Below, piece after piece: positions 1 to 16,072 of a DNA stretch of 19,100 bases (positions are counted from its first letter, which is position 1; each line of letters opens with the position of its first letter). The translations under genes and the position numbers were made by a program. Origin of the DNA: a virus. Under the pieces are notes generated by a model. That model was not told the origin of the DNA, made no database searches, and saw only the letters and a list, made by a program, of their open reading frames with translations. The DNA is taken from the UHGV virus genome UHGV-0207576; one strand, written 5' to 3'.

Positions 1-336
1 CTTGGTTTGGGAGAAGCGGCAAAACGGAATGTGGGAACAGGGGAAAATCAGATACCTGATATGTCATCATATGCATCAGGTTCAGGCTGGCGAAAAATGC
101 CAGATGGTTCAATTGAACAGTGGGGACGAATTAGTTTTCCTGGTGAACACGGGCCTGTATCCGCCAATGTTTCATTCCCGATTCCATTTACACAGACACC
201 GGGCATTGTAATTGTGTGCGATGGTGGTTTCGGGGGCGGGAATATGTGGGGGGCGACCAACTGGAGCACTACCGGCTTCATAGCTCACTGCAATTATGGT
301 CTTGAAGGTGGTGCGTTTTTCGCTAAGGGCTGGTAA
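1..336 (+). CDS. Alternative tail-fibre C-terminal variable exon (S'v-like), no own start codon; would be expressed only after inversion fuses it to the constant N-terminal part
   Basis: Frame 1 is open from position 1 ([17 protein letters not shown]...KGW stop at 334-336). Its first codons repeat the LGLGE motif encoded at the crossover site inside the minus-strand fibre gene. Gly-rich C terminus. Confidence 0.55.
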
Positions 337-779
337 TGATGAAATATCTGTACGTAAACAACCTGGCATATCCTTACGAACTTCAGTCTCTTTATGTTGA
401 AAAAGGTGAATGGCCTGAAGAAAAAGGTGTTGATATAGACGAAGTAATTTTCAGGGAATATTTCTATGACACACCACCAGAAGGAAAATACAGATGTGTT
501 GGAGAAGATGGACTGCCTGCATGGGCAGATATTCCTCCACCAACACGTGAAGAACAAATTGCATCAGCCGAAACTAAAAAGCAGCAATTGATTAACCAGG
601 CCAACGAATACATCAACAGTAAACAATGGCCAGGTAAAGCATCAATTGGTCGTCTGAAAGGTGAGGAACTGGTGCAATATAATTTGTGGCTGGATTATCT
701 GGACGCACTGGAACTGGTCGATACTTCCGGTGCGCCAGATATTGAATGGCCTACGCCTCCGGCAGTTCAGGCCAGATGA
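336..779 (+). CDS. Tail fibre assembly protein (U'/Tfa-like), partner of the alternative fibre exon
   Basis: 147 aa; ATG overlaps upstream stop (TAATG); C terminus ...[23 protein letters not shown] resembles the C terminus of the opposite-strand assembly protein; position matches U' of Mu G segment. Confidence 0.65.
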   Translation: MMKYLYVNNLAYPYELQSLYVEKGEWPEEKGVDIDEVIFREYFYDTPPEGKYRCVGEDGLPAWADIPPPTREEQIASAETKKQQLINQANEYINSKQWPGKASIGRLKGEELVQYNLWLDYLDALELVDTSGAPDIEWPTPPAVQAR

Positions 780-1356
780 CGTCCGGCGCTGTGCTGGTAT
801 CTGTTGCCGTCACCACGTCAATGTAATCCAGCACAGTGTTAAGCCGGGTTGTTTCTGCCTGCGTCAGTTTCCGTCCGGCCTTTAATTTCAGCTGAATCAG
901 ACTGATGGAAGCCATTGCAGCATCAATCAGTGACTGGCGCTGTGCTTCTGCCGCGTCTACTGCGGCGCTATGCTGTGCCTCAATATCGGTCACCCATTTC
1001 TCACCATCCCATTTATCGTATGGCGTTAACGGGGCGATAGTGGTCGTATTTTCAGGATAATCACCCGGACCTGTGATTTCTTTCGATTCTCCTGTTTCGG
1101 TGTTATAGACGATTTCACCGCGATGGTCTGGCACATATTCCCATGAGTTTAAATCCATCGAACGGCAGATAGCATAACCCGCCTTATGTGTGCCAGGGGC
1201 ATCTAAACAGGAATATGCAGGGATACCGACACCCACAGCAAGATATTCAGTTGATGCAGAAATATACTCCCGTGTCTCACTGTCATAGTTATAAACGGTA
1301 ATCTCTCCTGCCTTTGTGGCAATAAATTTACTATTCAAGATGGCGTTATACATCAT
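751..1356 (-). CDS. Tail fibre assembly protein (U/Tfa-like)
   Basis: 201 aa; start overlaps fibre gene stop (ATGA); C terminus ...[28 protein letters not shown] parallels the U' C terminus; 3' end overlaps the convergent U' gene by 29 bp. Confidence 0.65.
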
Positions 1357-2183
1357 GCAGCCCTCACAATGTAATTAAATGAAATATTACGTGGGCGTGT
1401 CTCTGCTGCACCGACAATACTGGTTCTCAACCCCGTCGCTGTTCGTTTGTTATTTTTATTTCCTTCAATCAGACAGTTGTAATCATCATTACCAATTAAC
1501 GAATTAGTGGCATCAATACCGTCCGGGGACAAGGCATTAGTTGTAGAACTTAAAGTCAGCATCTCGTCTGAACTTGGAAGATTTTTTAATGGTATTTCAT
1601 TGCGAGAAATACCCGCGTAAAAAAAGGACTCATGCCTGTGCGCTTCAAAAGAGTCATCCTGAAGACTTAGCAAGGCACGTCCCGCATCCACACCACGCCC
1701 GTCATCCCAGCCACGAATAAACTCACCACGTAAATCAGGCAATTTATTTGTCGGATAAGCCTTTGCCAGTTCCGGGTATTCTTCAGCAGAAAAAGCGGCA
1801 CCGTTGCATTTCAGCCAGCCTGTTGGCGGAGTGGCGGAAGGCCACGGAACAGGCACGCCAACGGGTAATGCCGAACCTTCTCCCAAACCAAGGTTTTCGA
1901 GAGCCGTTGGTACTGTGCCGTCCGATTTGATATCGCCAAACGGATTTTTGCGGCTTAACAGCAACGCGCGAAGCGCGGTAAGTAGCTGATCCGTTTTTTT
2001 GGGGTCAGGTTGAATATGTGCACCACCAAGAACATTAAGGAGTTCCTGCTGTAAATCACGGGCTGCCCCCTGCTGATTGTTTAAATAACCAGCAGTCACG
2101 AGGGTTCCTTCTATCCCCTGAGTGGGGTCACCATCATGAAACAATTGATCCGGTGTATTTATCGGGGGCATCAGATTTTGCAT
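1353..2183 (-). CDS. Tail fibre protein (S-like): constant N-terminal ~97 aa outside the invertible segment, variable C-terminal collar-type domain inside it
   Basis: 276 aa; motif PWP...[22 protein letters not shown]...[22 protein letters not shown]...H.H is a typical phage tail collar/fibre signature; the crossover site at 1878-1903 lies in-frame ([13 protein letters not shown]). Confidence 0.75.
1878..1903. other. Serine DNA-invertase crossover site (gix/cix/pix-like), right boundary of invertible segment
   Basis: ttctcccaaacc-aa-ggttttcgagag: a 26-bp imperfect palindrome with central AA, closely resembling Gin/Hin/Cin/Pin recombination sites as recalled (AAACC..GGTTT core); its inner half-site is repeated inverted at window positions 4-15. 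Confidence 0.7.
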
Positions 2184-2755
2184 TACTGCTCCTCCTTATA
2201 TGTGAAATGGCAATAAGTAAAAGCGGGTTTAAGGTCTTTAAATGTTTCTTCCAGTACAGGGGCACCAAAGGAAAGTAACGGCTCCCCGGCAGCAGATACT
2301 CCGGTTCTGAATCTGTAGGCTGGCGTTCTGCTTCCTGTGACATTAACCTGCCAAATCCATCGGACATCTGTTATATAGAGACGATCACCACATCGGTTTA
2401 TCCCCGCTCTGAATGGATGAAGTTCAGTAATTGTTATGGTGTACCCGAGGCTGGCTGCAAGTTGTTTAAAATAAGGGATAGATAACCCACCAGTTGCAGC
2501 CATCTTTATAAGAATATTTTCTCGGCGTTCCTGCTGTGTGGCACCGTCGCGGGGTATTACTCCATACACTCGTTCCCAGTCAGACAGCGTCATGGATGCG
2601 TAAAATGGTGTGACAGATGCAAGCACTCGTGCAGCTGACGCTTTTACTTCATCCATAATGGCTGCTTCTGCGTTCAGTTCTGCTGAAATATATTTCCCGT
2701 TCGGGTCATAGCTGACCGGTGGTAACATGGCACGAAATAAATCAACCGTATTCAT
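2183..2755 (-). CDS. Tail/baseplate protein, Mu gp48-like (DUF2313/YmfQ-like)
   Basis: 190 aa; sits between the baseplate J-like gene and the tail fibre gene as in Mu and e14; stop overlaps fibre start. Confidence 0.55.
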
Positions 2756-2758
2756 GTA

Positions 2759-3838
2759 TTAACTCTCCCGGGGAAATGGCTGGATATCAATACTCCCCGG
2801 ACGCAGCCACTCCCATGTGGATTCATTGACAACTGCTTTTACATTATCTGACGGCATAATAATTCGCCGGTCACTGACGCCAGAAATTAATGAAATCTGA
2901 GTTTCCAGTTGTGAAATAATTAATTCCTGCCCCGGCTCCAGCCGGTTCATAAAATCCGTGATAACTTCAGTTATCTGTGGTTTTATCTGTTCAACAGTAA
3001 GACCACTGGTTTTTACCCGGACAACGAAATCAACGGCTTTTTTCGTCGGGGCCAGCACCATCGTGTCCTTCGCTGTCACCGGGCGGACTTCCTCAATATG
3101 TGCCAGCACGGCATTAATCAGTTCCTGCGAAGGGAGGTCATTGGCTGACGTAATGGCCACATCAACCGTCCCCAGTCCACGACGCAACGGCTCCACATAC
3201 GCAGACGTAACGCCATCCACTTCCAGCGCCCAGCGTTTGTAATCATATTTATTACCGCCAGCGGGCGGCCTGCGCAGAATATCCAGATAACGCGCCAGCA
3301 GGTCGGCGTCGCTTTCCCTGTCCGTTCCGCCGGTCAGGGATTTAATCGTCACCGTGCTGTTGATGCCTTCAGGTGGGCTGACCAGCGTTGCCGTCTGCGT
3401 CGTGGATGCATTCGTCTGTGCACCCGTGGCAGTGCTTTTTACCGTCACCTCTGCGCTGCCTTCATCACCGACGGTGCAGTCTGCTGCGGTGGCCACGCTG
3501 ACACCTTCACCACGAATTTCCGCACCGGCTGGCAGCGTCTTACCGGGTGTGCCGGTAATCACTGCCGGACCGGATGAGGCCGTTGCTTTTTTACGAAAAA
3601 CATTGCGCGTGCGGCAGTGCAACTCCAGATATTCAGGGTCTGCCGTATCAGGAAACACCTGACGGAGTATCCACCCCTGATGCATATACAGTCCGTCCGC
3701 CACGCCGGATACGGCATTTGCACGAATGCGGTAATCGCTGTCAGCGCCGGTGTCGATGGTTTCGCCCGGCAGGGCGTTAGCGATATCACGTAGCTGGCGT
3801 TCTGTGTTTTCAGCAACGCCCGGAACAGGAAACGGCAT
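2759..3838 (-). CDS. Baseplate J-like protein (Mu gp47 / P2 gpJ family)
   Basis: About 359 aa from ATG at 3836-3838 (GAGGA Shine-Dalgarno 8 nt upstream; the longer ORF to 3862 starts on TTG and overlaps the upstream stop). Size and position match baseplate wedge J. Confidence 0.65.
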   Translation of the reverse strand: MPFPVPGVAENTERQLRDIANALPGETIDTGADSDYRIRANAVSGVADGLYMHQGWILRQVFPDTADPEYLELHCRTRNVFRKKATASSGPAVITGTPGKTLPAGAEIRGEGVSVATAADCTVGDEGSAEVTVKSTATGAQTNASTTQTATLVSPPEGINSTVTIKSLTGGTDRESDADLLARYLDILRRPPAGGNKYDYKRWALEVDGVTSAYVEPLRRGLGTVDVAITSANDLPSQELINAVLAHIEEVRPVTAKDTMVLAPTKKAVDFVVRVKTSGLTVEQIKPQITEVITDFMNRLEPGQELIISQLETQISLISGVSDRRIIMPSDNVKAVVNESTWEWLRPGSIDIQPFPRES

Positions 3839-3848
3839 TACATAATCC

Positions 3849-4187
3849 TCACAGGTGTTCAAACGTCTGCGGTGTGCCCGCGTTATCCGTGACGGTGATT
3901 AACAGCAACAACCAGCCGCGCTGCCCCGGTTTTGTGTCAACGGTAATGGATTTTGCCCGCCCGTCATCGAGCAGGGGCTGAAGTGCCTGGCTGGCATACT
4001 GCGCCGCAAGCTTATGAACACGGGAAACGTCTTTTTCCCGCTTCAGCTCGTGCAGGCGTGACCCCAGCGACGCATCCGCCCAGTAACTGCCAAGCGGCGT
4101 CGCCAGTCGCAGATAAACCGCGTTATGAAGGGTATAAATCCGACGGCGTTCGTAGTCGCCGGTTGCAGGTGAAATCGTCTGGTCCAT
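3849..4187 (-). CDS. Baseplate protein, Mu gp46-like (P2 gpW-like)
   Basis: 112 aa; small protein between the V-like spike and the J-like wedge, the conserved gp45-gp46-gp47 order. Confidence 0.5.
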   Translation of the reverse strand: MDQTISPATGDYERRRIYTLHNAVYLRLATPLGSYWADASLGSRLHELKREKDVSRVHKLAAQYASQALQPLLDDGRAKSITVDTKPGQRGWLLLLITVTDNAGTPQTFEHL

Positions 4188-4240
4188 GCCGCCAGTCTGG
4201 CAGCATGGACAGGTCAGAATCAGGTGAGGGTGTTCAGCAC

Positions 4241-4894
4241 TTAATTAACCGGCGTGTCAGACATGCCGTGTGGGGTTGGATGTTTGTGCGTTCCGATTTT
4301 AACGCCATTAATGGTGACGTCAACGGAGGTAATCACTCCACCCACATGGTTGATATCGCCTTCAAAGGTGGCAGTGTATCCCTTGCCCCCACTGATGGCC
4401 ATGCCACCGTTGCCGGTGATTTTGCCTTCCACCGTCAGCCTGTCACTGGCTGTCAGTAACGGTGTCGTGAATGTGGCGTTCTCCTCTGCCTCAACCTCGT
4501 AGCGTTTGCATTTCACGCGATAAACGTCACATTCGGTTTCAATAACCCGTCCGCGCTTCAGTACGATTTTCGCGCCTTCATCGGTATACAGGGCCACTTC
4601 CCCGGGTTTCAGTTCCGTCAGACGATATGCGCCGTGCTCTGTGGCCACCACGACAGTATGAGAGGTATTGCCGTTCAGCGGAACGGCAATACCCATTGAG
4701 CCGGGCGGCGGGGATGTGGTGAGGCCGTAATGCTGAAAATACTCCGCACCGTCCAGCTGTTCGCCTGCCAGCCCGTTAAGCTGAAGCAGCTGTACTTTGG
4801 TCGAACTGTCCACCGTACCGGTCACCACCCTGAATGCCTGGCGAACGGCGGCCAGTGCCTGCTGTACGCGCTGATTAACTTTGTCCCACATCAT
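4241..4894 (-). CDS. Baseplate assembly protein V / central spike (Mu gp45-like)
   Basis: 217 aa; start overlaps upstream stop (ATGA); C-terminal ...VTINGVKIGTHKHPTPHG resembles gpV-type spike tips; size and position match Mu gp45. Confidence 0.65.
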   Translation of the reverse strand: MMWDKVNQRVQQALAAVRQAFRVVTGTVDSSTKVQLLQLNGLAGEQLDGAEYFQHYGLTTSPPPGSMGIAVPLNGNTSHTVVVATEHGAYRLTELKPGEVALYTDEGAKIVLKRGRVIETECDVYRVKCKRYEVEAEENATFTTPLLTASDRLTVEGKITGNGGMAISGGKGYTATFEGDINHVGGVITSVDVTINGVKIGTHKHPTPHGMSDTPVN

Positions 4895-6102
4895 TTCTCC
4901 CAGACCTTAACAATGGCGACCTCTTTTTTCTTTTTGCCCCTGCGGTGATGGCGTTTCTTCTCGCGCGGGAAGGCATCAGGTATCCACACGCCGTCCTCTT
5001 TAAAGCGGAGCCGGGTTGTCTGCCCGTTTCGGCCTCCGCTGAACTCACGCCCCATCAGGAAAAAGATGGCATCAATGCCGTGGAGTTCGCTGACAATCCG
5101 CACCCGCTGGCCGGGCTGCCACAGAACACCATCTGCCGTGCGATGACCTGCAACCAGCGCGACGATATCCAGCCCCGACAGGCGGGCATCACTCATCATT
5201 TTTTTTGCGCGCCAGTTCACCTGCTCCAGATTGCTGGTGTCGCCCTGGGTGATTATCTGCGGGCGGTAATAATCCACGGTGGGGTCGGTGGCAACGGCTT
5301 TCATGTTATGAATGCCTGTCTGGCCACTGTCCGTATTACCGCTGTCCTGCCCGGACAATGTGCGCACGCTGCCGTCCTCGTTCCAGATATCCAGCGGCAC
5401 CACGGCCACCTGTTTCTTGCTGTCTGCGCGGCGGGCGTGGCTCTGGGCCAGCACAGTAAGTTCGGAGAAACAGCCGTTAATGGACCGGGTATCGTCCAGC
5501 TCCATCACGTTGTTCCCGGTGCCGTTCAGCTTCAGAATCAGCGTATCCACCGGCGTGGTGGTGTAGTCAGGGCCACCCACAACCAGCGTCCCGTCAGGCT
5601 CAAACCACGGCCATAAGCCGCGACCGGCGGCAGCTTTGGCCAGTGCATCCCACGCACGCATCCCCGGCTCAATAACGACTTTGTCATTACGTGACACACC
5701 GGACGCCTGAATACGGATGCGCTGTATCCCCAGCGGTCTGACAATCCTGTCGATGACCTCGTCCAGCGTCAGCTGGTTGGCGCTGAACACTGGCGCGGCA
5801 CAGTCCACCAGGATGGCGGCATCATCACGCCCGGACAGGGTCAGCGTGCAGCTCTGACGGGATACACTGCGGCGCACGCTGTCTATGCGCCCACTGAGCA
5901 CCGTTTCGTCTCCCACCTGCAACCGGATTTGTGCGCCCCGGACGATATCCGCCGGGAACACCTTTTCAGGCAGCCCCAGCTGAAGCTGCCAGCCGTCGGC
6001 AGCTTTCAGGAAATCGCTGTCAATACGATAACTGTTCCAGTCAGAATGCGACCTTCCGGCAATGACCAGGCTGATTTTGTCTTCGTTATTTTGCGTAGGC
6101 AT
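4891..6102 (-). CDS. Tail/baseplate hub protein (Mu gp44 P-like, P2 gpD late-control-D family)
   Basis: 403 aa; position between gp43-like and gp45-like genes; unusual Lys/Arg-rich C-terminal tail (EKKRHHRRGKKKKEVAIVKVWEK). Confidence 0.6.
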   Translation of the reverse strand: MPTQNNEDKISLVIAGRSHSDWNSYRIDSDFLKAADGWQLQLGLPEKVFPADIVRGAQIRLQVGDETVLSGRIDSVRRSVSRQSCTLTLSGRDDAAILVDCAAPVFSANQLTLDEVIDRIVRPLGIQRIRIQASGVSRNDKVVIEPGMRAWDALAKAAAGRGLWPWFEPDGTLVVGGPDYTTTPVDTLILKLNGTGNNVMELDDTRSINGCFSELTVLAQSHARRADSKKQVAVVPLDIWNEDGSVRTLSGQDSGNTDSGQTGIHNMKAVATDPTVDYYRPQIITQGDTSNLEQVNWRAKKMMSDARLSGLDIVALVAGHRTADGVLWQPGQRVRIVSELHGIDAIFFLMGREFSGGRNGQTTRLRFKEDGVWIPDAFPREKKRHHRRGKKKKEVAIVKVWEK

Positions 6103-6937
6103 TAATGACCACCCCGGCGGTTATGTTGTTCGGGTCACGCAGCTGCGGGTTCAGACGTTGCAGTTCTGCCGCACGACTGTAATCACCGTACCACTGCCAC
6201 GCCAGCAACAGCAGACAGCTGTCCGCCTGCACCTGTTTCTGCATCAGCGGTGGGCGGCGTGACAGAACCAGCAGGCCGACATCCTGCACGGATGCCGCCA
6301 CGTTTTTCATGCTCTGAATGATTTCCGGGTACATCAGCCCCAGCGGTGATGCGGTTTCGGTTATCCGTTCGCGTTCGCCTTCATAGCGTTCACGGAACAG
6401 CGTGATGGCAGCCTGTAAGCGGGTGCGCACATCCCCGACCAGTCGCCCGATATCCGCCGGTATAAGCTGTTCTGACTGCGCATCATCAACCAGTATCGCC
6501 ATTGCAACACTGGCCAGTTCAGATGCGGCCTGTGTTGCGTAAACTGCTTTCACATCCTGCACATCGTCTGGCGAGGCATCCGCAGGAAGTACCACCTCCG
6601 GTACTTTATCGCCACTGACCAGGGCAACAGGCAGCGCAACAAATTCATCCATATCAGTGATGACCTTATTCCAGCAGTTCATCACTGTCGCAGAACTGGC
6701 GACGGTCGTCTCTCCTGCCAACCCGGTCCGGGTGGCAGAATCAACACGTTGCAGAACCGGCACCGGTTGCCCGACATCTGATGTGTGGATTTCCAGCACC
6801 TCTGCCAGTCCATTGATAAATTTTCCGGGTTCGCCTGCCAGTGACACGATATTATCGACAGTGGAGACAAAATCACTTTTGAACGACAGCAGGGTATTCA
6901 CCAGTGTGGCACGCACTGTCTGGGCTTTTTTAATCAT
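6086..6937 (-). CDS. Tail protein, Mu gp43 (N, DNA circulation)-like; C-terminal region resembles the LysM-like fold of P2 gpX
   Basis: 283 aa; C terminus ...LLLLAWQWYGDYSRAAELQRLNPQLRDPNNITAGVV resembles a LysM/gpX-like motif; lies immediately after the tape measure. Confidence 0.45.
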   Translation of the reverse strand: MIKKAQTVRATLVNTLLSFKSDFVSTVDNIVSLAGEPGKFINGLAEVLEIHTSDVGQPVPVLQRVDSATRTGLAGETTVASSATVMNCWNKVITDMDEFVALPVALVSGDKVPEVVLPADASPDDVQDVKAVYATQAASELASVAMAILVDDAQSEQLIPADIGRLVGDVRTRLQAAITLFRERYEGERERITETASPLGLMYPEIIQSMKNVAASVQDVGLLVLSRRPPLMQKQVQADSCLLLLAWQWYGDYSRAAELQRLNPQLRDPNNITAGVVINAYAK

Positions 6938-6941
6938 GCTG

Positions 6942-8336
6942 TTAACGGTATTTAAAGGTGCAGTAAGCCAGGATTGCCTTCAGTGCCTGCATATCACCAA
7001 CAAGCTCACCAACACCGAACCCCTCAAGAATTTTCGCCATAGACTCTAGGATTTTGTCCTGCTGGCCTTTGTCTTTTGTTGCTGCCAGACGCTTCTGAAG
7101 CTCCTGATATTGTTTGTTGTTCGCGGTGACTTTATCAGTGAGGCGTGAAAATGCTTCTATCGGATCAATGCCGTTTTCCATAGCTCGGGTCAACGTACCA
7201 GGTAGATCAATACCTTTGCCATCAATCGTGATGCTTTTCGCCCTTGTTGCTGATTCACTACTGAAAAGTTTGGCCAGCAGGTTTACAACGTTATTACCTG
7301 CTTCACTGCTGCTGCCTGCGGCAATCCCTGCGACCTCATTAAATGCCAGTAATTTCTGGAGTCCATCCAGTCCTTTCATTCCGGCGTTACCAGCTAACGC
7401 CATCTGAGGTCCAAGATATTCCGCCATATCCCGTAGCTCAAAATTACCCGCTTTACCTGCTGCGACAGCCATATTAAACATGGCCGGGAGGTCGTCATCT
7501 GTCAGTCCAAATGTTTGTTTAGCTTTGGCCGCCATAGTGACCAGATCGCGTGGAGATGCGCCGGATGCAGTAGCAAATTTCATAATCTGCGGTAAGAGAT
7601 TATTCGCGGTATCCCAGGAAAAAGCGCCGCTGGCCAACATCTCATTCATTGCTTCAGCTGCATCCTCTTTCGTTCCGCCACCATACGTTACCGCCGCGCG
7701 GATACTGTTTTTCAGCTTTTCACGCCCAAACTGCCTGCCTTCCAGACCACCATCACTGAACGCCGTGTTCGCCATCATGCTGAGCTGACGTTCATAACTC
7801 ATTTGATTTCTGACTGGTTGCGTCATAATGGCGGCCCCTGCCATAATTCCGCCGCCTATTGTCACGGCATTCCCGCCAAATGCAGCCGCACGGGCAAAAC
7901 GCCCCCGTTCAGGGATAACAGGCGTTTTCGCCATCTTCATCTGAGCCTGAGTGACGCCATCCAGTTCACGCTTGAGTGCCCGGGCTTTTTCCCGGGTGGC
8001 CTGCATGGCGCGCTCCTGCTCCTGCGCAGATTCAAAACCGGCGCGGGCCAGACGGTTATAGCTGGCAACCGTCTGATAAATTTCACGCCGGATCTCGCGT
8101 TCTGCACGAATACCGAGCGTTTCCCGGGCACGGGCGGCACGCTGTATCTCTTTTGCCGCCTTTTTCGTGCTGTTAACGCTTTCCTGCCCGGTACGCGTCT
8201 GCTCTGCGCCTGCCTTCCGGGTTGCCTTTGTTACACCTTCGGTGGCTTTGATAACCTGTTTTTGTCCCTTTTCCAGAACCTGCGAGGCTTCGTCCTTCGC
8301 AGTCAGGGTCATGCCAACTTTGAAATTACCGGCCAT
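6942..8336 (-). CDS. Tail tape measure protein
   Basis: 464 aa; Ala/Gly-rich, charged coiled-coil N-terminal region, central GGxxxG-type hydrophobic stretch (AAAFGGNAVTIGGGIMAGAAIM), typical tape measure composition; preceded by a chaperone gene with an overlapping alternative frame. Confidence 0.8.
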   Translation of the reverse strand: MAGNFKVGMTLTAKDEASQVLEKGQKQVIKATEGVTKATRKAGAEQTRTGQESVNSTKKAAKEIQRAARARETLGIRAEREIRREIYQTVASYNRLARAGFESAQEQERAMQATREKARALKRELDGVTQAQMKMAKTPVIPERGRFARAAAFGGNAVTIGGGIMAGAAIMTQPVRNQMSYERQLSMMANTAFSDGGLEGRQFGREKLKNSIRAAVTYGGGTKEDAAEAMNEMLASGAFSWDTANNLLPQIMKFATASGASPRDLVTMAAKAKQTFGLTDDDLPAMFNMAVAAGKAGNFELRDMAEYLGPQMALAGNAGMKGLDGLQKLLAFNEVAGIAAGSSSEAGNNVVNLLAKLFSSESATRAKSITIDGKGIDLPGTLTRAMENGIDPIEAFSRLTDKVTANNKQYQELQKRLAATKDKGQQDKILESMAKILEGFGVGELVGDMQALKAILAYCTFKYR

Positions 8337-8498
8337 TTTTCTGTTTACCTTTTCTGCGTTTCTTTCTGAGGGATTTAAATGACTGGCGGGTGGTCTGTGA
8401 GGTGTCCTTTCTTCCTGAGCCGCCGCCGTTCAGCCTGTCAACGGCGGCAAGCCAGCCGTCCAGCTCGGGACGGCTCATGGTCATGATTTGTTCTTCAG

Positions 8499-8789
8499 TT
8501 ATTCCGTAGCGCCCGAGGATAAGGACTGCGAGCCGGAGTCCGGCGAGCCGGGATTCCCGCCGCTCCGCTTTACCTTCAGGACGTTGCGTGATGCCAGCAG
8601 AATATTAAAATCTTCCGGCGTCATGTTGTCGTGCAACAGCTCCGCCGTCAGTTCTTCCTGCGGAATATCCCCCAGACGGACCAGCGTTGCCGCCATTACC
8701 GCACAGCGGTAGTAATAATCCGCCGCGAAGCCGTCCACTGTCTGAAAGCGTTCTTCAGTTTCTTCCAGTGCCTGCCCGTTATCACGCAT
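8499..8789 (-). CDS. Tail assembly chaperone (P2 gpE / Mu gp41-like), probably lacking its original N terminus
   Basis: 96 aa from ATG; the frame stays open 29 codons upstream (TGIATQTGELSDGLVFNGTIHKNFELRLPV) with a gpE-like pattern but no start codon; acidic LTAELLHDNMTPEDFNILL region; lies directly upstream of tape measure. Confidence 0.5.
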   Translation of the reverse strand: MRDNGQALEETEERFQTVDGFAADYYYRCAVMAATLVRLGDIPQEELTAELLHDNMTPEDFNILLASRNVLKVKRSGGNPGSPDSGSQSLSSGATE

Positions 8790-9262
8790 GACCGGCAGAC
8801 GCAGCTCAAAGTTTTTATGAATGGTGCCGTTAAAAACCAGACCATCGGACAGTTCGCCGGTCTGTGTAGCGATACCTGTTCATAGAAACGCACTGCTTTA
8901 ACTAGTCCTTCCGGCACTACCGACGCTGGCGGGGCAGCATAAAGCTCATGCATTCCATCAGATAGCGAGTGACCTACATACTCACTGAACCCATCAACAC
9001 ACATGCATCCATCTTCAACAATGCATGACGCTACTGGCAAAGCCACCTCCCGTGCCTCCAGTTCTTCTGCCCACTCCCGAAGCCCTTCAATCTCACCATT
9101 ACGAGCTATCAGATCGCGACACAGTCTTTCGTTTTCATCCAGCAACGCCTGCACAACCTCCGGCGTAGCCGCAGCATGAAAAGCCTGTAGGTTCTGCCAC
9201 GTCGTATCCCCCTTCGCGGCCTCTGCCACCTCACGCAGTGCCTGATAGTTAATCTCGCTCAC
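8696..9262 (-). pseudogene. ead/Ea22-like protein, N-terminal ~120 aa intact, then runs across a probable deletion/recombination junction (~8880-8900) into out-of-frame chaperone sequence
   Basis: GTG start with AGGAGG RBS; N terminus MSEINYQALREVAEAAKGDTTWQNLQAFHAAATPEVVQALLDENERL matches the Ea22-like N-terminal pattern as recalled; C-terminal ~65 aa is Cys/Trp/Arg-rich and overlaps the chaperone frame. Confidence 0.45.
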
Positions 9263-9518
9263 TGGTTGCCTCCTTTTTCCATGTTTTCAGACTTTCACCA
9301 CAGAACGGGCAAAAACACATGGCAACACCACGACCGACATATTGGCCGGAGTGAATTTGAGCAATGTCTAAGCCTGGCTCGCCGGTGTTTATATTCACGC
9401 GTTCCGGGATAAATATGCCTTTACTCTTAAAGGCTGGATTTCCATATTCGAGTGCTTTTGCCAGTACCGCACACGGTTCTATCTGATTGCCATTAATTCG
9501 ACACTTTAATTCACTCAC
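9249..9518 (-). CDS. Hypothetical small protein with Cys motifs (possible zinc-binding)
   Basis: Likely GTG start at 9516-9518 (GGGAGG RBS, GTGA overlap with upstream stop); contains C..C and CFCPFC motifs. Confidence 0.4.
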   Translation of the reverse strand: MSELKCRINGNQIEPCAVLAKALEYGNPAFKSKGIFIPERVNINTGEPGLDIAQIHSGQYVGRGVAMCFCPFCGESLKTWKKEATSERD

Positions 9519-9679
9519 TTCAACACCTCCCGACGACGTTCCTGAAGTTCCAGCATTGCAGCCCGGAAATCCTGCCACCATTCCTCATCGGCAACGGGGG
9601 AGTTCCGCTCCAGCACCTTGTCCGCATCGGCAATCAGTCTGGTCAGACTCTTATCGCTTATTCTGGTTTGCTGACTCAC
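9515..9679 (-). CDS. Hypothetical small protein
   Basis: Probable GTG start at 9677-9679 preceded by AGGAGA RBS (longest ORF reaches 9718 on TTG); charged, helical-looking 53-67 aa. Confidence 0.35.
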   Translation of the reverse strand: MSQQTRISDKSLTRLIADADKVLERNSPVADEEWWQDFRAAMLELQERRREVLK

Positions 9680-9965
9680 TGGTTGTCTCCTGTTCATTTT
9701 TTTCATTCCGGTACACAAGAATTACGATATCTCCCCGGGTAATTACGCGTGCGGGGTCGCCCTGTTGCATATGGTCAATATCAAAAGCGTCATTAAACGC
9801 ATTTAGCGCCTTCGCGCGCTTGTCTTTACAACGATGTTTTTCACGCTGCTTAAAGAGCGAAGAAATCAACCACCTGAATGACATAAAAGTGATATAGCCA
9901 TAACCGATAAGCGCCAGACCTGTATTCATGGCTACATCTATCGTTATCGTTTTATCAATGACCAT
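9651..9965 (-). CDS. Hypothetical small membrane protein (one predicted TM helix)
   Basis: 104 aa; strong AGGAGG RBS 7 nt upstream of ATG; hydrophobic stretch NTGLALIGYGYITFMSFRWLISSLF followed by basic segment; start overlaps upstream stop. Confidence 0.5.
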   Translation of the reverse strand: MVIDKTITIDVAMNTGLALIGYGYITFMSFRWLISSLFKQREKHRCKDKRAKALNAFNDAFDIDHMQQGDPARVITRGDIVILVYRNEKNEQETTSESANQNKR

Positions 9966-10185
9966 TGCCAGCCTCCTGTTTTGCCACTTTAAACGCCCGC
10001 AACATCGGGACCGTTTTACCGCTGATGACAGTGTTCATAACAATACCGATTCCACTGTGATGTAACGCTCCCGGTGCAACAAACAGCGCAGCATCTACAA
10101 CTCTGAAGTAACGGTGGAACTCCCAGAACCAACAAGAAATAGTGATAGTTGCGGTGACCCCATGGTCATAAAATTCAATTTTCAT
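9955..10185 (-). CDS. Hypothetical small protein
   Basis: 76 aa; ATGA start/stop overlap with upstream gene (translational coupling). Confidence 0.4.
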   Translation of the reverse strand: MKIEFYDHGVTATITISCWFWEFHRYFRVVDAALFVAPGALHHSGIGIVMNTVISGKTVPMLRAFKVAKQEAGNGH

Positions 10186-10409
10186 TTGCAGTTAAACCTT
10201 CTCTTATGACGTTCTACGGCAGCCTTCATATTGTTGTGCACGGTTCTTTTAATAATCCGACGTCCCACACTGTCATAGAACCGCCACCGGGAAGCCCCCG
10301 GATATCCGGGGAACTCAACCACCGCGCTACCGTCATTCATCCTGTATTCGTGGCGTTCTCCGGGCGGCTGGTATATTGCTTCGGTAACACTAAGAAGTTT
10401 AAAAGCCAT
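10182..10409 (-). CDS. Hypothetical small protein
   Basis: 75 aa; strong GGAGGG RBS ~7 nt upstream of ATG; 2 nt after upstream stop. Confidence 0.45.
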   Translation of the reverse strand: MAFKLLSVTEAIYQPPGERHEYRMNDGSAVVEFPGYPGASRWRFYDSVGRRIIKRTVHNNMKAAVERHKRRFNCK

Positions 10410-10411
10410 CG

Positions 10412-11122
10412 TTACACCCTCCCCAGTGCCAGCGGTCTGTTGCTCTGACCATTAACCCCCTGATGCAGCCTGGCGTTCTTCCCGGCGATAAAACCGGCAG
10501 TAGCGGCAAACTCTGCACCCCGACACGCTTTAGCTGTGCGCATATCCCCGTCGCGCAGTCCCTTAGTGCTGTGCAGGTTCTTTCTGTAAAGCTCAAGGCG
10601 GCTTTTTTCTTCCGGGGAGACGTCATACACCGCAATGACATCACGGGCACCAAAGACCCAGCCTTCGCAGAACTGGTCGCCACGGGCTACCCGCGTGGAC
10701 GGACCACAACGTTTGCAGTGTTTATCCTGATATTTCTTGCGCTCTGCCATCATCTGACGGGAAAGCACATCAAACGCGTAAGCCGCGATTTCCGGGCGGC
10801 TGTCAGGACCATAAAAACGCACGTAACGTTTGAGTGAACCAGAAGCCCGGTATTCGCCGGAGATGTAACACTCGACACCGAAGGCTTTACAGACCAGGTC
10901 ACACAGGATGTGCATATAACGCGGCGGCGTACTGGCGTCACTCGGCGCACCCGCGCTGGCAGCTTCCTGAATGTCGAACAATTCCGCGTCGTTTTCGCTG
11001 ATACCATGCTGGCGCATATAAGCCTGGGCTTTTGCAATAGCGTTAGCGGCTTCTTCCGGGCTTGATGTTCCTCTGGCAAGGCGTAACAGTTTTTTGATTT
11101 TGGCAATGTATTTATCTTTCAT
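10412..11122 (-). CDS. Phage accessory protein with DUF2786-like N-terminal helical motif
   Basis: 236 aa; N terminus KIKKLLRLARGTSSPEEAANAIAKAQAYMRQHGI matches the DUF2786-type pattern common in prophage early regions (from memory, not searched). Confidence 0.5.
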   Translation of the reverse strand: MKDKYIAKIKKLLRLARGTSSPEEAANAIAKAQAYMRQHGISENDAELFDIQEAASAGAPSDASTPPRYMHILCDLVCKAFGVECYISGEYRASGSLKRYVRFYGPDSRPEIAAYAFDVLSRQMMAERKKYQDKHCKRCGPSTRVARGDQFCEGWVFGARDVIAVYDVSPEEKSRLELYRKNLHSTKGLRDGDMRTAKACRGAEFAATAGFIAGKNARLHQGVNGQSNRPLALGRV

Positions 11123-11210
11123 GGTTGTAACTCATTGTTTTTGATCAACTTATAACCACAAAACACTTGTCATAATCGCTGCCCCAACATACCCAATCAG
11201 GAGTTAAAAA

Positions 11211-11429
11211 ATGATTGATGATGAAATTGCGGCAGCAATTACTGCTAACAAAGCTGCGTGGAGCTTTCTGGTTAAACAGCTTTCAGAAAATGGCTGTCTG
11301 AACCTCAGCGCCCTGGATTCTGAATTACGCAACTTCCAGCACGGCCTTCAGGAACGTGGGGAGTTCGTTCTGGCTGCGGCGCTGGATGAACATCTGCTGT
11401 CGATTGAGAACTGGTCGCAAGACGATTAA
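11211..11429 (+). CDS. Hypothetical small acidic protein, transcribed opposite to all flanking phage genes
   Basis: 72 aa; AGGAG RBS 7 nt upstream of ATG; followed by two hairpin terminators; net acidic. Confidence 0.5.
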   Translation: MIDDEIAAAITANKAAWSFLVKQLSENGCLNLSALDSELRNFQHGLQERGEFVLAAALDEHLLSIENWSQDD

Positions 11430-11451
11430 AACAAACGATTGTCAGATTAAT

Positions 11452-11471
11452 TTCGCGGGCGAATTTTTTTT
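11452..11471 (+). terminator. Weak intrinsic terminator after the plus-strand small gene
   Basis: Short GC hairpin ttcgcgggcgaa followed by a run of 8 T. Confidence 0.35.
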
Positions 11472-11507
11472 GCTTAGCAATATTCATAAATAAACTTCCT
11501 CAGATTC

Positions 11508-11545
11508 AGGCGTAAGCCAGCCCCTGCGGGTTTACGCCTGTTTTA
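11508..11545 (+). terminator. Strong hairpin terminator at the boundary between early-gene block and accessory block
   Basis: aggcgtaagccagcccctgcgggtttacgcct forms a ~12-bp stem with one mismatch, followed by gtttt. Confidence 0.5.
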
Positions 11546-11569
11546 AATAACAATTAAAAACAAATTAAA

Positions 11570-11761
11570 TTAATGCGGTGCTTTCAGTGTTTCGACTTTA
11601 ACGAAATAAGGCTCGACATTAATTTCAACCACACAACCACATTTAAAATCTCTGGCAGGTGCAACAGTTTTTACCACCCGACCACCACGCACTGCCCGAT
11701 GTGCAATGTGCATGAAGCGAGTCCCTGGCGGATATAGCTGATTAAAGCGTTTCGCGTTCAT
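11570..11761 (-). CDS. Hypothetical small protein (last gene of early operon)
   Basis: 63 aa ORF; overlaps upstream gene end, real start may be internal Met at ~11713. Confidence 0.35.
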   Translation of the reverse strand: MNAKRFNQLYPPGTRFMHIAHRAVRGGRVVKTVAPARDFKCGCVVEINVEPYFVKVETLKAPH

Positions 11762-11975
11762 GAGGCGGCTTCCATCTTTTCAGGTGAGCATTGGCACAGA
11801 ACTCTGCCCGGTGTTCCGCCCAGATGCGGCGCAGGGTACTACACGGGCTTTGTGCTGCCTTACGCCACAGTTTTTCAGCTTCGGCATAATCGCCGCGTTG
11901 TTCTGCTCTGGACGCGCCCAGCGAATACGCTGCGCAACGGTTCCCGGCCCTGTACTCTTTGATATCCTGATGCAT
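11742..11975 (-). CDS. Small regulator-like protein (ANR-family-like pattern)
   Basis: About 77 aa from ATG at 11973-11975, directly after upstream stop at 11977-11979; pattern ...AAYSLGASRAEQRGDYAEAEKLWRKAAQ...W...C recalls ANR-type small regulators. Confidence 0.4.
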   Translation of the reverse strand: MHQDIKEYRAGNRCAAYSLGASRAEQRGDYAEAEKLWRKAAQSPCSTLRRIWAEHRAEFCANAHLKRWKPPHERETL

Positions 11976-11976
11976 G

Positions 11977-12621
11977 TTAAACCCCTGCAATATCAAGCGG
12001 GATTGCGCGGTATTCAGCAGAATCACCGACGCGCTCATACACGCGGATATAGCTTTTGCTGCCAATTACCTGGACGGCTTCACCAATCAGTTTCATGGCG
12101 TTATCCCAGCGTTCCTCCGTAATATCGAGACGACGCAGAGCCAGAACGCGCCCGGTGTTAATGTTGCCTTCCTTGTCCGTGCTGAATGCTTCACTGATGA
12201 TGGCTTTAATTTCAGGGCGCGCTCCTTCCGTCCAGTCAGCCAGACAGTCATCAATCAGTGCCTTCGCGGTCTGAATGCGTTCATCAAGCGCGATACGGTC
12301 CTGCATGGCGCGCTGAATCTTGTAACGCCCGTCAAAGCTGTAAAGTGTGATATTCCCTTTTTTACCGCCTTTCACAGCGCCGTATTTCTCCGCCGACAGG
12401 TCAATAAATGCCTGAATATCACCAAACGCACGCAGTTTCAGTTCACGCAGTGAGGCAGAGGCAGCAATCACCATCTCCACAAGCTCACCGACCAGCTGCT
12501 CACGGTCGCGGTCAATATCTTTGATAAGACTTTCAGGCGTCATCACACCACGGGCATCAACCCAGTAGCCTTCCTGCACTTTATTTTTTGTATATTGCTT
12601 AACTTTATTTTCAGTCGTCAT
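11977..12621 (-). CDS. Mu-like early-region protein (DUF3164-like)
   Basis: 214 aa; position downstream of the B-like gene in the semi-essential early region; family assignment from memory of the protein pattern, not searched. Confidence 0.45.
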   Translation of the reverse strand: MTTENKVKQYTKNKVQEGYWVDARGVMTPESLIKDIDRDREQLVGELVEMVIAASASLRELKLRAFGDIQAFIDLSAEKYGAVKGGKKGNITLYSFDGRYKIQRAMQDRIALDERIQTAKALIDDCLADWTEGARPEIKAIISEAFSTDKEGNINTGRVLALRRLDITEERWDNAMKLIGEAVQVIGSKSYIRVYERVGDSAEYRAIPLDIAGV

Positions 12622-12650
12622 AATTAAATTACCTCAGTGATATTTACAGA

Positions 12651-12866
12651 TTAATGTGTGTTATGTGCGCGAGGCGCAACATTTTCAGAAAAAAGATTCA
12701 CGCCGTTATAGTCATTTCTGAGCGTTTCCTTGATAGCATCATGTAATCTTGTTGCCACCTGAAACTCCTTTTCGGAAGCTCCGTCCTTCGAATAACTCCC
12801 CGTGGTCTGGGTTAAAACACAGCCTTTTTCATCGGTATAGATAATTACTTCTAACTTAACCGCCAT
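12651..12866 (-). CDS. Hypothetical early-region protein
   Basis: 71 aa ORF in the early operon. Confidence 0.4.
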   Translation of the reverse strand: MAVKLEVIIYTDEKGCVLTQTTGSYSKDGASEKEFQVATRLHDAIKETLRNDYNGVNLFSENVAPRAHNTH

Positions 12867-12878
12867 TCTGATTTCCTC

Positions 12879-13118
12879 TTATTGCCATACGACGGTGCAG
12901 CCGTCGATACAGGACGTTTTCACCACGCGGCGCAGGCCGCTGAATGTCTGGATGATTTCCGTTACCGGCCATACAGGGCCGCCCACGGGCGGGCAGGCAT
13001 AAACCACAGGTAAACGGTGATGTTGCCCAGTTACGCGACCGCCGGTGGTGTGGATGGCCACACGGGCACGGGAACGGACGGCGTTAATGGTCTGCTTGTC
13101 CATCATCTTGTTCTCCAT
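12879..13118 (-). CDS. Hypothetical early-region protein
   Basis: 79 aa ORF immediately downstream of the B-like gene. Confidence 0.4.
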   Translation of the reverse strand: MENKMMDKQTINAVRSRARVAIHTTGGRVTGQHHRLPVVYACPPVGGPVWPVTEIIQTFSGLRRVVKTSCIDGCTVVWQ

Positions 13119-14011
13119 CAGTGAATTAACATTTCTGCGAATTTATCAATGGCCTGCACACTGACCGGTGCATCGCTGATATCACAAATCCGGTACACAC
13201 CGCGAGCCAGTTTGAACAGGCGGCGGGCATTACCCAGTGAGCGTGCGTAGAGCGCCTCGCTGATTTCCGGTTCTGCTGCTTCCGGCATCAGCCCGGTAGC
13301 TATCTGGTTAAAATCTTCCTGCGACAGCGTATCGCCCAGGTTAAGCGCCAGCGCCACACGGCTGTATAACTGGGCGAACTCACCGCGACGTCCCTTGAGG
13401 TTAATCAGAAGGCGTGGCATACCCGCCAGGACAATCCCGATACCCGCTTTGTCATGCAGACGGCGCAGAACCTCCAGTGCGCGATAGGGGAGCAGTTCAG
13501 CCTCGTCCACCATCAGCAGGCGACCGGAATCACGCAGTTCTCGCACACATGCATCAATCAGTTCGTGGATATTGCCGCGAACTTTTACCCCCAGCTGGCG
13601 GCACAGCTCCTCAAGCAGTGTTCTGGCTGTATAGCCCGGGTCGGCTTCAATCAGGACCGCATCCCGGTTTCTGGCGGCGTATTCACGCAGAATCATTGTT
13701 TTGCCAAGACCTGCCGCGCCATACAGTACGCAGATTTCACATTCCAGGTGAGCATAGGCCAACACCTCCAGTCCTTTGGCAGCCATACCGGTGGCAACAA
13801 ATTTCGCTTTAATACGGCGGCTGTTTTCCTTTTCCCGCTCACGGGTCACAAAGGCAGAAATGCGTTCTTCAATATCAGCCATATCGCCCTGATATTTACC
13901 CTGTAAATACTGGTTGATAACGGCGCTGCTACGACCAATAGCACGGGCGACGTGGGTTTGCGTATAGCCGCGACGGGCCATTACGTCATTTAATTGCGTA
14001 ATTAAACTCAT
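13118..14011 (-). CDS. MuB-like transposition target-DNA activator (AAA+ ATPase with N-terminal HTH)
   Basis: 297 aa; N-terminal HTH (YTQTHVARAIGRSSAVINQYLQGK), Walker A GAAGLGKT, Walker B LLMVDEAE; lies directly after the transposase gene as in Mu. Confidence 0.85.
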   Translation of the reverse strand: MSLITQLNDVMARRGYTQTHVARAIGRSSAVINQYLQGKYQGDMADIEERISAFVTREREKENSRRIKAKFVATGMAAKGLEVLAYAHLECEICVLYGAAGLGKTMILREYAARNRDAVLIEADPGYTARTLLEELCRQLGVKVRGNIHELIDACVRELRDSGRLLMVDEAELLPYRALEVLRRLHDKAGIGIVLAGMPRLLINLKGRRGEFAQLYSRVALALNLGDTLSQEDFNQIATGLMPEAAEPEISEALYARSLGNARRLFKLARGVYRICDISDAPVSVQAIDKFAEMLIH

Positions 14012-14029
14012 AATTAAATACCTTTTAAA

Positions 14030-16072
14030 TTAACGGTTGTTTGTGCCGTTTTTCTTTAAATTGCGTTCGCGTTCAGATGCGAATAAATAAAGTTCTTCTT
14101 TTTCCTTTTTCTCCAGGCGTTCCAGTCCATATCCCAGATTAAAGTCAGGCTTCTGCGTAATGGCCGGGGTAAGCTCGCGTTTAGCCTCTTCGATTTTCTG
14201 CGTGGCCCGTGCAATGCGGCCCTTGACGCGTTTCTCCAGTTTTTGTTCGATAACTGGTTTAGCGAAGGCATCAACCTTGTTACCGTTCCAGATGGCATCG
14301 CAGATATAAGAGCCATCAGCCCGCCGGACAATGACGCTGTTTGCATCATGAATATCGTAACTGACCCTGACTTCATTCCCGTGCTCTGCGGCCAGATCAT
14401 ATGAGTAATAAATATTGTTGAATAACTGAATTTCCCCGCGAAATGTTTTGCGCGTCACTTCCGGCCTGAACATTTCATGCAGTTCTTCCGGCGACAGGAA
14501 ATCAATTTCAACATTCTGCTCTTTTATCAGTTTCCGGCGATACGCTGCCGGGCTGTAATGCTCGCCATCCTCTTTGCGAGGAAGGCTGCTGTGTGGCCGG
14601 TTGTTATAGCGTCTGACCTCCAGCTCTATGGCTGCCATCAGTTGCTCAAAGGTAGGGATTTCATCCCTCGCCTTAACCTGCCGTTTTGTCAGCTCTTTCC
14701 CTTTGTGGGTGGCCTTAATGGCTGACTGCATAATCCGTTGCTGCATCATTACGGTTTCCTTGTCTGCATCCCTTGCGCAGTACGTTTGGAAACTCAGGGC
14801 CACGTCTTTGGGTATTTCCTTGTTAACCCTTTCAATCACCCCGCGCCCCTGCGGGTTACCTGGTATCCCCGTGTGATGTTCCACACCCAGACGGGGCAGA
14901 ATCCCGGTAATATCGGCATCAAGCACCAGGTTTTTTTCGCCGCCCCCGTTATCGGAGTAATAAATCAGCGGTATCCCGTGCTGTGCCATGCCGTAACGTA
15001 ACGCATCAGCAACGGCTATCACGTTCTCCGACAGGGACAGTGACCAGCCCACAATAAAGCGTTGTCCTGCATCCATAACCAGCGTCACTTCTGGCCGGAA
15101 AATATTGCCGGTCAGGGGGTTAAACGCGGTCATTTTCATACAGTGACCATCCCCGACCCATACCGCATTAACCGGTAATGATGTCCACTCGCGCCGCACA
15201 AAGGGATTGAGCGAACGCCAGGCTGAACCTGTGGAGCGGAAACGCTCTTTAACAATCACCGGGACGCTGCTTAACACCCGTCTTACTGCGTGAACTGAAG
15301 GCAGTGCCGCCAGCATTCCCGCATCGTTCGCGTGTTTTTCATGCCACCAGGCTGAAAACTCGCGATACGCATATTCAACGGTCGGGCGCTTCCATGAGCG
15401 ATAGAACATAAAGAAATCGCTCAACCACCAGACCTGCTCCCACGGTGTTCCCTTATGATGACCGGGAGCCAGTAACGCCAGTAACTGATTGGCATCACCG
15501 CGCGCCATCACCCAGCTGGAGTACCAACTATCCAGGCTGCCTGTGCTGACACCGGTTCGCTTTCCCTGACGTGCATTTGCAGTATTAGCTGCTTCGATAA
15601 TGCGGTCAGGTAACGCCCCCATGCGCACACCATCAACGATGTGCTTTAACGCGGCCTTCCTTGTCATTCCGGCGTATTCACGCAGTTTATGCACTTCAGT
15701 AGCCAGCAATATCCGCGCATCAGCGATGGCCTTTTGCTTGTCAGTCAGTGCCTGGACTTCGCGTAATGCCAGTTCCGGGCATTTGACCATCACCTCCAGT
15801 TCATCGCGAACGGCGACGTTTTTAACTGCCTTCTGCTCAACCACGGCGGGCAGTTGCGTATCTTCCAGGACCTGATGGGTCAGGCGCTTACGTAAAACTT
15901 TCTGCGCTTCAGCGGGCAGGCAGTCGATGTGATACTCGAATGCTTTGGTGCCTTCACGCTTGCGCTTCCATTCCGGGTGCGTCTCTGTGATCCGATTGAG
16001 CGTCCAGCGCACCCCCTGAACTGTACCGGGCAAACCAGGAAGACCGGCCAGCTCATTGGCTGAATAAAACAT
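14030..16072 (-). CDS. MuA-like DDE transposase
   Basis: 680 aa; N terminus LAGLPGLPGTVQGVRW...TKAFEYHIDCLPAEAQ parallels the MuA end-binding winged-helix domain (ANLPGLPKTSAGV...KAIEYNANSLPVEAK); central DDE region with VWVGDGH; TAATG overlap with Ner-like gene. Confidence 0.9.
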   Translation of the reverse strand: MFYSANELAGLPGLPGTVQGVRWTLNRITETHPEWKRKREGTKAFEYHIDCLPAEAQKVLRKRLTHQVLEDTQLPAVVEQKAVKNVAVRDELEVMVKCPELALREVQALTDKQKAIADARILLATEVHKLREYAGMTRKAALKHIVDGVRMGALPDRIIEAANTANARQGKRTGVSTGSLDSWYSSWVMARGDANQLLALLAPGHHKGTPWEQVWWLSDFFMFYRSWKRPTVEYAYREFSAWWHEKHANDAGMLAALPSVHAVRRVLSSVPVIVKERFRSTGSAWRSLNPFVRREWTSLPVNAVWVGDGHCMKMTAFNPLTGNIFRPEVTLVMDAGQRFIVGWSLSLSENVIAVADALRYGMAQHGIPLIYYSDNGGGEKNLVLDADITGILPRLGVEHHTGIPGNPQGRGVIERVNKEIPKDVALSFQTYCARDADKETVMMQQRIMQSAIKATHKGKELTKRQVKARDEIPTFEQLMAAIELEVRRYNNRPHSSLPRKEDGEHYSPAAYRRKLIKEQNVEIDFLSPEELHEMFRPEVTRKTFRGEIQLFNNIYYSYDLAAEHGNEVRVSYDIHDANSVIVRRADGSYICDAIWNGNKVDAFAKPVIEQKLEKRVKGRIARATQKIEEAKRELTPAITQKPDFNLGYGLERLEKKEKEELYLFASERERNLKKNGTNNR

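Follow-up and report, generated by a model that had tools for sequence, protein, structure and literature searches.

A Pin/e14-type invertible tail-fibre cassette in a deleted Mu-like prophage of Escherichia coli

Described inversion systems and the present cassette

Cross-complementation among the serine DNA invertases Gin, Cin, Pin and Hin is well established. In the G segment of Mu (Gin) and the C segment of P1 (Cin) a constant fibre part is combined with one of two alternative C-termini and their chaperones, and the crossover sites are 26 bp long with 12-bp half-sites. The Mu G segment measures 3059 bp, the constant part of the fibre about 170 aa, and gin, com and mom come after the segment. 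The e14 element of E. coli K-12, a lambdoid remnant, has the order stfP-tfaP-tfaE-stfE-pinE and a distance of 1827 bp between the site starts. The Hin/hix system of Salmonella employs a recombinase of the same family, but inverts a promoter and not protein-coding exons as the cassette described here does. Its Fis-dependent enhancer lies in the 5' part of the invertase gene, comprises 65 bp at a distance of about 100 bp from hixL, contains Fis sites 47 bp apart (centres) with ATTTA and TAATG in between, and acts across kilobases, in cis only (McLean et al. 2013, PMC3798978).

The DNA analysed here (the window) was a stretch of 19,100 nucleotides that starts inside a cassette of this type. As judged from its sequence, the segment from base ~2 to base ~1891 is a Pin/e14 "P-segment" (Din-family) invertible host-range cassette. 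Because the site is identical to that of e14, the ends are in frame and each arm has its own chaperone, it belongs to a kind that is already known. The feature is real, and a preliminary description made from the sequence alone had classed it correctly. It comprises the following parts.

1-16, no strand: left crossover site, truncated by the window start and repeated perfectly, in inverted orientation, at 1877-1892; it comprises the first base of the outer half-site (1), the core (2-3, TT on the plus strand) and the inner half-site (4-15, GGTTTGGGAGAA), with one extra repeat base at 16
1-336, plus strand: silent alternative C-terminal fibre exon, 111 aa from the site-encoded LGLGE (Gp53-like_C, PF21882, E=9.8e-8)
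336-779, plus strand: tail-fibre assembly chaperone of 147 aa, partner of the silent exon (Caudo_TAP, E=2.7e-32)
751-1356, minus strand: tail-fibre assembly chaperone of 201 aa, partner of the expressed exon (Caudo_TAP, E=1.3e-31)
1353-1892, minus strand: expressed variable C-terminal fibre part, aa 98-276, Collar-type receptor-binding (Collar, PF07484, E=2.1e-15)
1878-1903, no strand: right (fibre-side) 26-bp crossover site TTCTCCCAAACC AA GGTTTTCGAGAG, within the fibre frame
1893-2183, minus strand: constant N-terminal fibre part, aa 1-97, baseplate-attaching (part of ORF 1353-2183)

A repeat finder reported bases 1-16 and 1877-1892 as a perfect inverted repeat (arms of 16 nt, 100% complementary, 1860 nt apart). 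With up to three mismatches allowed, the 16-mer occurred in the 19.1 kb only at the two repeat arms, while 0.19 copies were expected from shuffled sequences. Direct reading of 1878-1903 gave two 12-bp half-sites with AA at 1890-1891. The preliminary description, which had named the repeat, read 1878-1903 as a serine-invertase site with 12-bp half-sites around AA and placed the window start inside the left site, was confirmed in these points; the inner half-site, the core and one outer base of the left site are retained. All of the 15 bp visible out of its 26 match, and the relatives described below have complete 26-bp sites at this position.

Sequences of Mu and of the K-12 e14 region were used for site extraction and comparison. 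In the comparison with known sites that had been proposed earlier, the right site matched the K-12 e14 site in stfP in 26 of 26 positions, and only 18 of 26 positions agreed with gix of Mu, which has different half-sites and a GA core in place of AA. The right site was also identical to the fibre-side site in all eight inspected relatives of the lineage, and the second site of these relatives, beside a pin stub, is identical to the pinE-side site of e14. A chance inverted repeat devoid of recombination function would be compatible with the short visible stretch on the left (16 nt only). This reading has practically no probability and is already refuted: so few matches are expected even at three mismatches, the sequence is that of a characterized crossover site, both reading frames traverse the site, the inversion breakpoints of relatives coincide exactly with these sites, and flipping of the E2348/69 locus has been published.

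The fibre ORF (1353-2183, minus strand, 276 aa) passes through the right site in frame, with GSALPVG directly after the crossover-encoded stretch, and frame 1 of the silent arm runs from base 1 to a stop at 334-336. Both ends begin with LGLGE, as had been stated; the crossover point is codon L98, and a flip is predicted to yield an in-frame fibre of 208 aa. The swap partners named before, a Collar arm with a 201-aa chaperone and an arm of ~110 aa with a 147-aa chaperone, agree with the Pfam domains. The domain of the silent exon is of the Gp53-like C-terminal receptor-binding type, and an identical 109-aa ORF of the silent arm is present in e14-like, P2-like and Mu-like prophages. The constant part showed 96-99.6% nucleotide identity to six relatives with the same backbone, and its last ~40 aa are nearly identical to StfP of e14. 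The 201-aa chaperone was 89% identical to TfaE, and the 147-aa chaperone 60% identical to TfaP across its C-terminal 97 aa. For the Collar arm the e14 homologue is the StfE fragment (55% identity, near-identical over the first ~80 aa).

The gene order is that of e14: a constant N-terminus of ~97 aa, an arm, two chaperone genes lying tail to tail with a 29-nt overlap, and the other arm, each of the alternative C-termini being accompanied by a Caudo_TAP chaperone. The distance between the site starts (1888 bp) is similar as well. The preliminary description had pointed out the short constant part and a segment of ~1.9 kb, smaller than Mu G. These sizes were correct but are no new feature, since they represent the ordinary e14 format (StfP has 209 aa). 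In e14 the arm corresponding to the silent Gp53-like domain is the C-terminus of StfP, and the backbone of the window is a Mu-like transposable prophage and not a lambdoid remnant. As in Mu, the cassette comes after the gp48 baseplate gene and occupies the right end of a Mu-type genome. Neither gin nor com nor mom was found in the window by Pfam and homology searches, and the arms belong to the StfE and Gp53-like families, not to Mu G.

Prophage background and inversion in relatives

The window represents a Mu-like transposable prophage of E. coli which is inserted in ydjO and crippled. Two larger features describe it.

1-17450, minus strand: deletion derivative of a Mu-like transposable prophage, with the c-end at ~17450 in ydjO
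2183-6102, minus strand: Mu-type baseplate genes gp48/YmfQ-like, gp47/J, gp46, gp45 and gp44/P (Pfam; 98.8% identity to the E2348/69 prophage)

From 17451 on the sequence is E. coli chromosome (ydjO-cedA-katE, 99.9% identity). The early genes retained include a CI-like repressor, ner, the MuA transposase gene A (Mu-transpos_C, HTH_Tnp_Mu_1), B for a MuB-like ATPase, and DUF3164. Of the late genes the minus strand retains a fragment of the tape-measure gene, gp44 to gp48 for the baseplate and, after these, the fibre gene. The sequence was compared with the full-length Mu-like prophage of EPEC strain E2348/69 (NC_011601): window 8873-17451 was 97.7% identical to 2724511-2715934, 6963-8874 was 99.4% identical to 2743038-2741127, and 1875-6966 was 98.8% identical to 2749499-2744407. 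Relative to this prophage a piece of 16.6 kb (Mor, holins, endolysin, terminase, portal, head, sheath and tube) and a second piece of 1.37 kb are absent, in total ~18 kb, and the deletion junctions lie near 8874 and 6966. The deleted form was absent from the complete E. coli genomes searched. A 51-mer across one deletion junction had zero matches in IMG/VR, and the other junction matched one metagenome contig, which ends at 1877. The status as a deletion derivative that is unable to build tails had been overlooked in the preliminary description.

As Mor and the genes for lysis, head, sheath and tube were lost with these ~18 kb, neither fibre would be carried by a virion. Judged by its gene content, this copy of the prophage is incapable of virion production, and the switch in it appears as a relic with respect to host range. 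The fibre could instead serve the host, if the product of one orientation blocked the adsorption of other phages. In e14, inversion driven by PinQ yields StfE2 (N-terminus of StfP plus C-terminus of StfE), which blocks adsorption of T2 (PMC12529663). The expressed 276-aa protein of the window has a StfE2-like make-up, and all five cassette ORFs are intact despite the deletion. However, the Mor activator is among the deleted genes, the receptor-binding tip differs from StfE at the identity of 55% given above, and the intact ORFs may merely reflect a recent deletion, as the remaining sequence is still 97.7-99.4% identical to the full-length prophage. A role in receptor blocking, by analogy with StfE2, is conceivable, but we consider such a host-level function improbable.

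Inversion of an orthologous locus is on record. Table S1 of Goldberg et al. 2014 (PMC4272514) gives an invertible locus "Mu" of E2348/69 at NC_011601 2749478-2751398, with 60 +/- 8% in the forward orientation in four clones; the ratio was obtained from sequenced clonal E2348/69 cultures. These coordinates are exactly the two sites of the E2348/69 locus identified here (L046). This locus belongs to the same lineage as the window (97.7-99.4% nucleotide identity over 1875-17451) and shares with it the fibre-side site, the position at the right prophage end and the architecture. It differs in that the E2348/69 prophage is full-length and both arms are different alleles; its left site is followed by a pin stub and the Mu end, and base 1 of the window is not of the type found there.

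Further relatives were found in both orientations. The annotation labels "gp53-like" and "phage tail protein" are unreliable for orientation, and it was therefore called by BLAST with arm-specific probes. Between E2348/69 and GPEC1176 the segment is cleanly inverted, with breakpoints at the two sites, and strains 47-1826 and 210221272 have the Collar arm in inverted orientation beside the stub and left site. The two orientations thus occur in the lineage, as seen in relatives of the window. A query imitating the flipped junction was covered to at least 80% by no genome, because the arms are mosaic; this search led to GPEC1176. The e14-identical right site, the occurrence of two orientations in many prophages and the flipping of the E2348/69 orthologue together bear out the original assignment to the Gin/Pin family of invertible fibre switches.

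The absent invertase and the pin stub

The preliminary description had placed the invertase gene and its enhancer just left of the window, which has become doubtful. No invertase was found in the 19.1-kb window by tblastn with three cassette-linked invertases (best E=2.5), and an adjacent invertase of ~180-200 aa with Resolvase and HTH_7 domains was present neither in the window nor in the eight relatives. In CFS3292, E2348/69 and GPEC1176 the sole tblastn match to the invertases was 31 residues long, and at a distance of ~250 bp to the left of the site the host sequence resumes (mhpT, eutC and a position near hokB). Five further relatives, in the neighbourhoods of yeiP, an oxidoreductase gene, IS4, melA and pphA, all had the same stub of 93 nt. 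Unlike e14, which has pinE, all eight inspected relatives (8/8) keep only the first 31 pin codons, followed by the Mu right end, and nothing of the gene is visible in the window. The relatives match K-12 pinE from the site through coding nt ~93 and then switch to a Mu-type end, TGTAACTTCGCG..., in which CCCAGAAT repeats resemble those at the c-end of the window. The block of Mu end, 31-codon stub and site (at least 80% query cover) was detected in 20 of 5426 complete E. coli genomes. Locus L049, a possible lineage member in which the invertase is intact, was rejected, as its baseplate genes were only 67-72% identical.

The eight relatives occupy eight different insertion sites without an invertase, which indicates that the lineage spread by transposition while it was invertase-less. 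The remainder of the Mu-like prophage of E2348/69 has zero annotated recombinases, and two P2-like prophages of this strain carry one intact recombinase gene each (1893763-1894362 and 2979534-2980112). For a lineage that lacks an invertase and yet inverts, catalysis in trans is the simplest reading, and other prophages probably supply the invertases for the flipping. A precedent is PinQ of the Qin prophage, which inverts the e14 segment in trans (PMC12529663). The E2348/69 entry of the study cited above (PMC4272514) records the flipping and not the absent invertase.

The part of pinE that was retained may be a regulatory one. The ATG of the stub is located 67 nt from the site centre, and the stub contains two G-N13-C 15-mers at coding nt 22-36 and 71-85, which flank ATTTA (nt 47) and CAATG (nt 57). 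The starts of these Fis-like 15-mers lie 49 bp from each other, as compared to 47 bp between centres in hin. The pinE homology stops ~8 nt beyond the second 15-mer, so that the retained part comprises roughly the site, a spacer and the enhancer. The stub coincides with the position of the Fis enhancer of Hin and, by position and homology, is a putative enhancer. In the window this putative cis enhancer would sit left of base 1. Since that sequence lies outside the window, stub, enhancer and outer half-site are deduced from the relatives.

The preferred reading, to which we assign a probability of about 0.7, is a Pin/e14-type cassette in a Mu-like prophage whose invertase is most likely not encoded next to it, so that inversion would occur in trans, and which is a relic in the present copy. 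A serine DNA invertase supplied in trans by co-resident prophages would bind both inverted 26-bp sites and cut at the central AA/TT dinucleotide, and with Fis bound at the cis enhancer it would rotate and rejoin the DNA. In the present state the constant 97-aa N-terminus (1893-2183) is fused to the Collar-type tip, accompanied by the 201-aa chaperone; in the flipped state it would be fused to the Gp53-like tip, accompanied by the 147-aa chaperone, to give the predicted 208-aa fibre. Left of base 1 this orphan model predicts TTTTCATAAACG, then the 31-codon stub, a Mu end of ~115 bp and the remaining half of ydjO.

The left flank of the window

Base 1 of the window is C, which is G in site orientation and corresponds to the fibre-side type. 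Among 86 sites in the fetched loci the first outer base of the invertase-adjacent sites was C in 47 and G in 2 cases, and that of the other, fibre-side sites was G in 32 and C in 5 cases. All eight stub-side sites (8/8) were of the C type, with which the G type of the window does not agree. In addition, bases 1-1032 were 97.9% identical to e14-like, invertase-bearing cassettes (L015, L050 and L051), as compared to 93% to E2348/69. As the left arm is closer to the e14-like cassettes, it was exchanged, or possibly mis-joined in assembly.

These data bear on a self-contained switch, with a gin/pin-like invertase and an enhancer of its own immediately left of base 1. The same cassette occurs at 92-98% nucleotide identity in P2-like, Mu-like, e14-like and other tail modules, in both orientations, and is usually adjoined by a gene for a 182-197-aa protein with Resolvase and HTH_7 domains; in the fetched loci, a full-length invertase match lies next to 37 of the sites. 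The similarity of the left arm to invertase-bearing cassettes points in the same direction, as does base 1, which is not of the stub type and has a counterpart in two G-type sites next to an invertase (L020 and L051). On the other hand, G-type outer half-sites were invertase-adjacent in just 2 of 34 cases, and every inspected member of the lineage has only the 31-codon stub. A self-contained switch is therefore rather unlikely, although it retains some weight.

Several contigs from other assemblies ended at or near the sites. The sibling contig k119_7697 (ERZ27289098) was 99.7% identical to the window from base 500 on and had a different silent arm, and the same sample contained a separate contig of 773 bp that starts at base 1 and carries the arm of the window. 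A SPAdes contig was 100% identical to 1877-9506 and ended exactly at 1877. In eight other assemblies the arm formed a short contig whose first base lies 2 nt ahead of base 1, in one case of 1881 bp and bounded by an 18-nt inverted repeat. The "ACC" starts of these eight contigs fit several fibre genes that share the arm (contexts ...AAAACC versus ...CATACC), and the "C" start of the window and of k119_86092 matches no flank type seen. An exact 60-mer from the Collar tip was found in 24 IMG/VR contigs and had zero matches in the genome contig set. Exact-protein look-ups retrieved sibling contigs ending at or near the sites, none of which crossed base 1. From the contig breaks it is evident that, in real samples, the arm is joined to more than one neighbouring sequence, through either flipping or multiple cassette copies, and such breaks are to be expected at these sites in assemblies.

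The breaks would also be compatible with a foreign origin of the left end. Bases 1 to ~500-780 could stem from another cassette copy in the sample, e.g. an e14-like element joined via the conserved 3' part of the chaperone gene, or the left flank could be a second fibre gene that arose by recombination between the sites of two prophages. The different silent arm of k119_7697 and the 773-bp contig from its sample, the end of the SPAdes contig at 1877, the eight short contigs and the fibre-side type of base 1 all speak for this explanation, and locus L051, a cassette between two invertase genes, is the reciprocal kind of product. However, flip-flop heterogeneity is equally expected to break contigs at the sites, and CFS3292, a completely sequenced genome from the same lineage, has a silent arm that is 97.2% identical over 5-1100, at the same place and in the same orientation. 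A foreign left end is unlikely. By descent the left flank is more likely the 31-codon stub, and one base, base 1, argues otherwise.

As a switch the cassette offers nothing new: it has the sites and layout of e14, and experimental flipping of its locus in E2348/69 is on record. In annotations, silent arm and accompanying chaperone deserve to be labelled as alternative exons of the fibre gene. The modest interest of the finding lies in the relatives and not in the window. About evenly balanced is the wider proposal that a Mu-like clade (the 20 genomes mentioned above) shed its invertase, kept the sites and 31 codons of pin, and runs an "orphan" switch with the invertases of co-resident prophages, the window being a decayed member. 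If this is true, these transposable phages have retained the cis elements of the switch alone, and cross-talk among recombinases of different prophages would have a clear example in nature.

Deletions, ends and insertion site of the prophage

The Mu-like prophage at positions 1-17450 is a deletion derivative of the prophage type found at full length in the EPEC strain E2348/69. In comparison with the E2348/69-type prophage, 16.6 kb extending from Mor through the tail tube are missing, and a further 1.37 kb are missing at the junction between the DNA-circularization and tape-measure genes. The junctions are located as follows:

6966, deletion junction
8874, deletion junction

The second deletion (1.37 kb) produced a fusion ORF of 283 aa (6086-6937), for which no match was found in Pfam. 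The c-end of the prophage (17290-17450) carries repeated CCCAGAA(T) motifs, and relatives have such motifs at their right end too (TGTAACTTCGCG...CAATTCTGGGCGG). These repeats at the prophage ends are probably transposase-binding sites. The host gene ydjO, into which the prophage is inserted, holds IS1, IS5 or IS30 in other strains.

The chaperone overlap, the Collar-type arm and base 1

The two chaperone genes of the invertible fibre cassette converge and overlap by 29 nt (751-779), exactly as do tfaP and tfaE of e14, and the C-termini of both proteins are encoded by opposite strands of this one stretch of DNA. At its tip (1397-1685), the expressed Collar-type arm is unlike the cassette common to most relatives and matches at 98% a separate allele present in ETEC H10407 and others. 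The arm thus shows internal mosaic exchange. Base 1, the only base of the outer half-site of the left crossover site inside the window, is of the fibre-side type, and the type on the side of the pin stub (the first 31 codons of pin) differed from it in all eight relatives. None of the flank types among the fetched loci explained why the contig starts exactly at this base.

Arrangements in related loci

A cassette of the e14 type with an invertase gene on both sides was found in GCA_011953905.1 (L051, 4369-7491). One invertase (186 aa) adjoins com/mom genes and the other (184 aa) adjoins mcrA, and the cassette appears to have arisen when the switches of two separate prophages underwent site-specific recombination with each other. 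The prophage of E. coli 47-1826 (L065), which belongs to the lineage of the window and has only the stub, contains three crossover sites (3466, 3905 and 5780) and two silent fibre arms in tandem; it is thus a multi-arm shufflon without an invertase of its own. In E. coli OkiPb01676 the same block of Mu end, stub and site (93% identity) is joined to another baseplate module, in which DUF2612 takes the place of the YmfQ/gp48 type. More than one prophage backbone therefore carries the stub arrangement.
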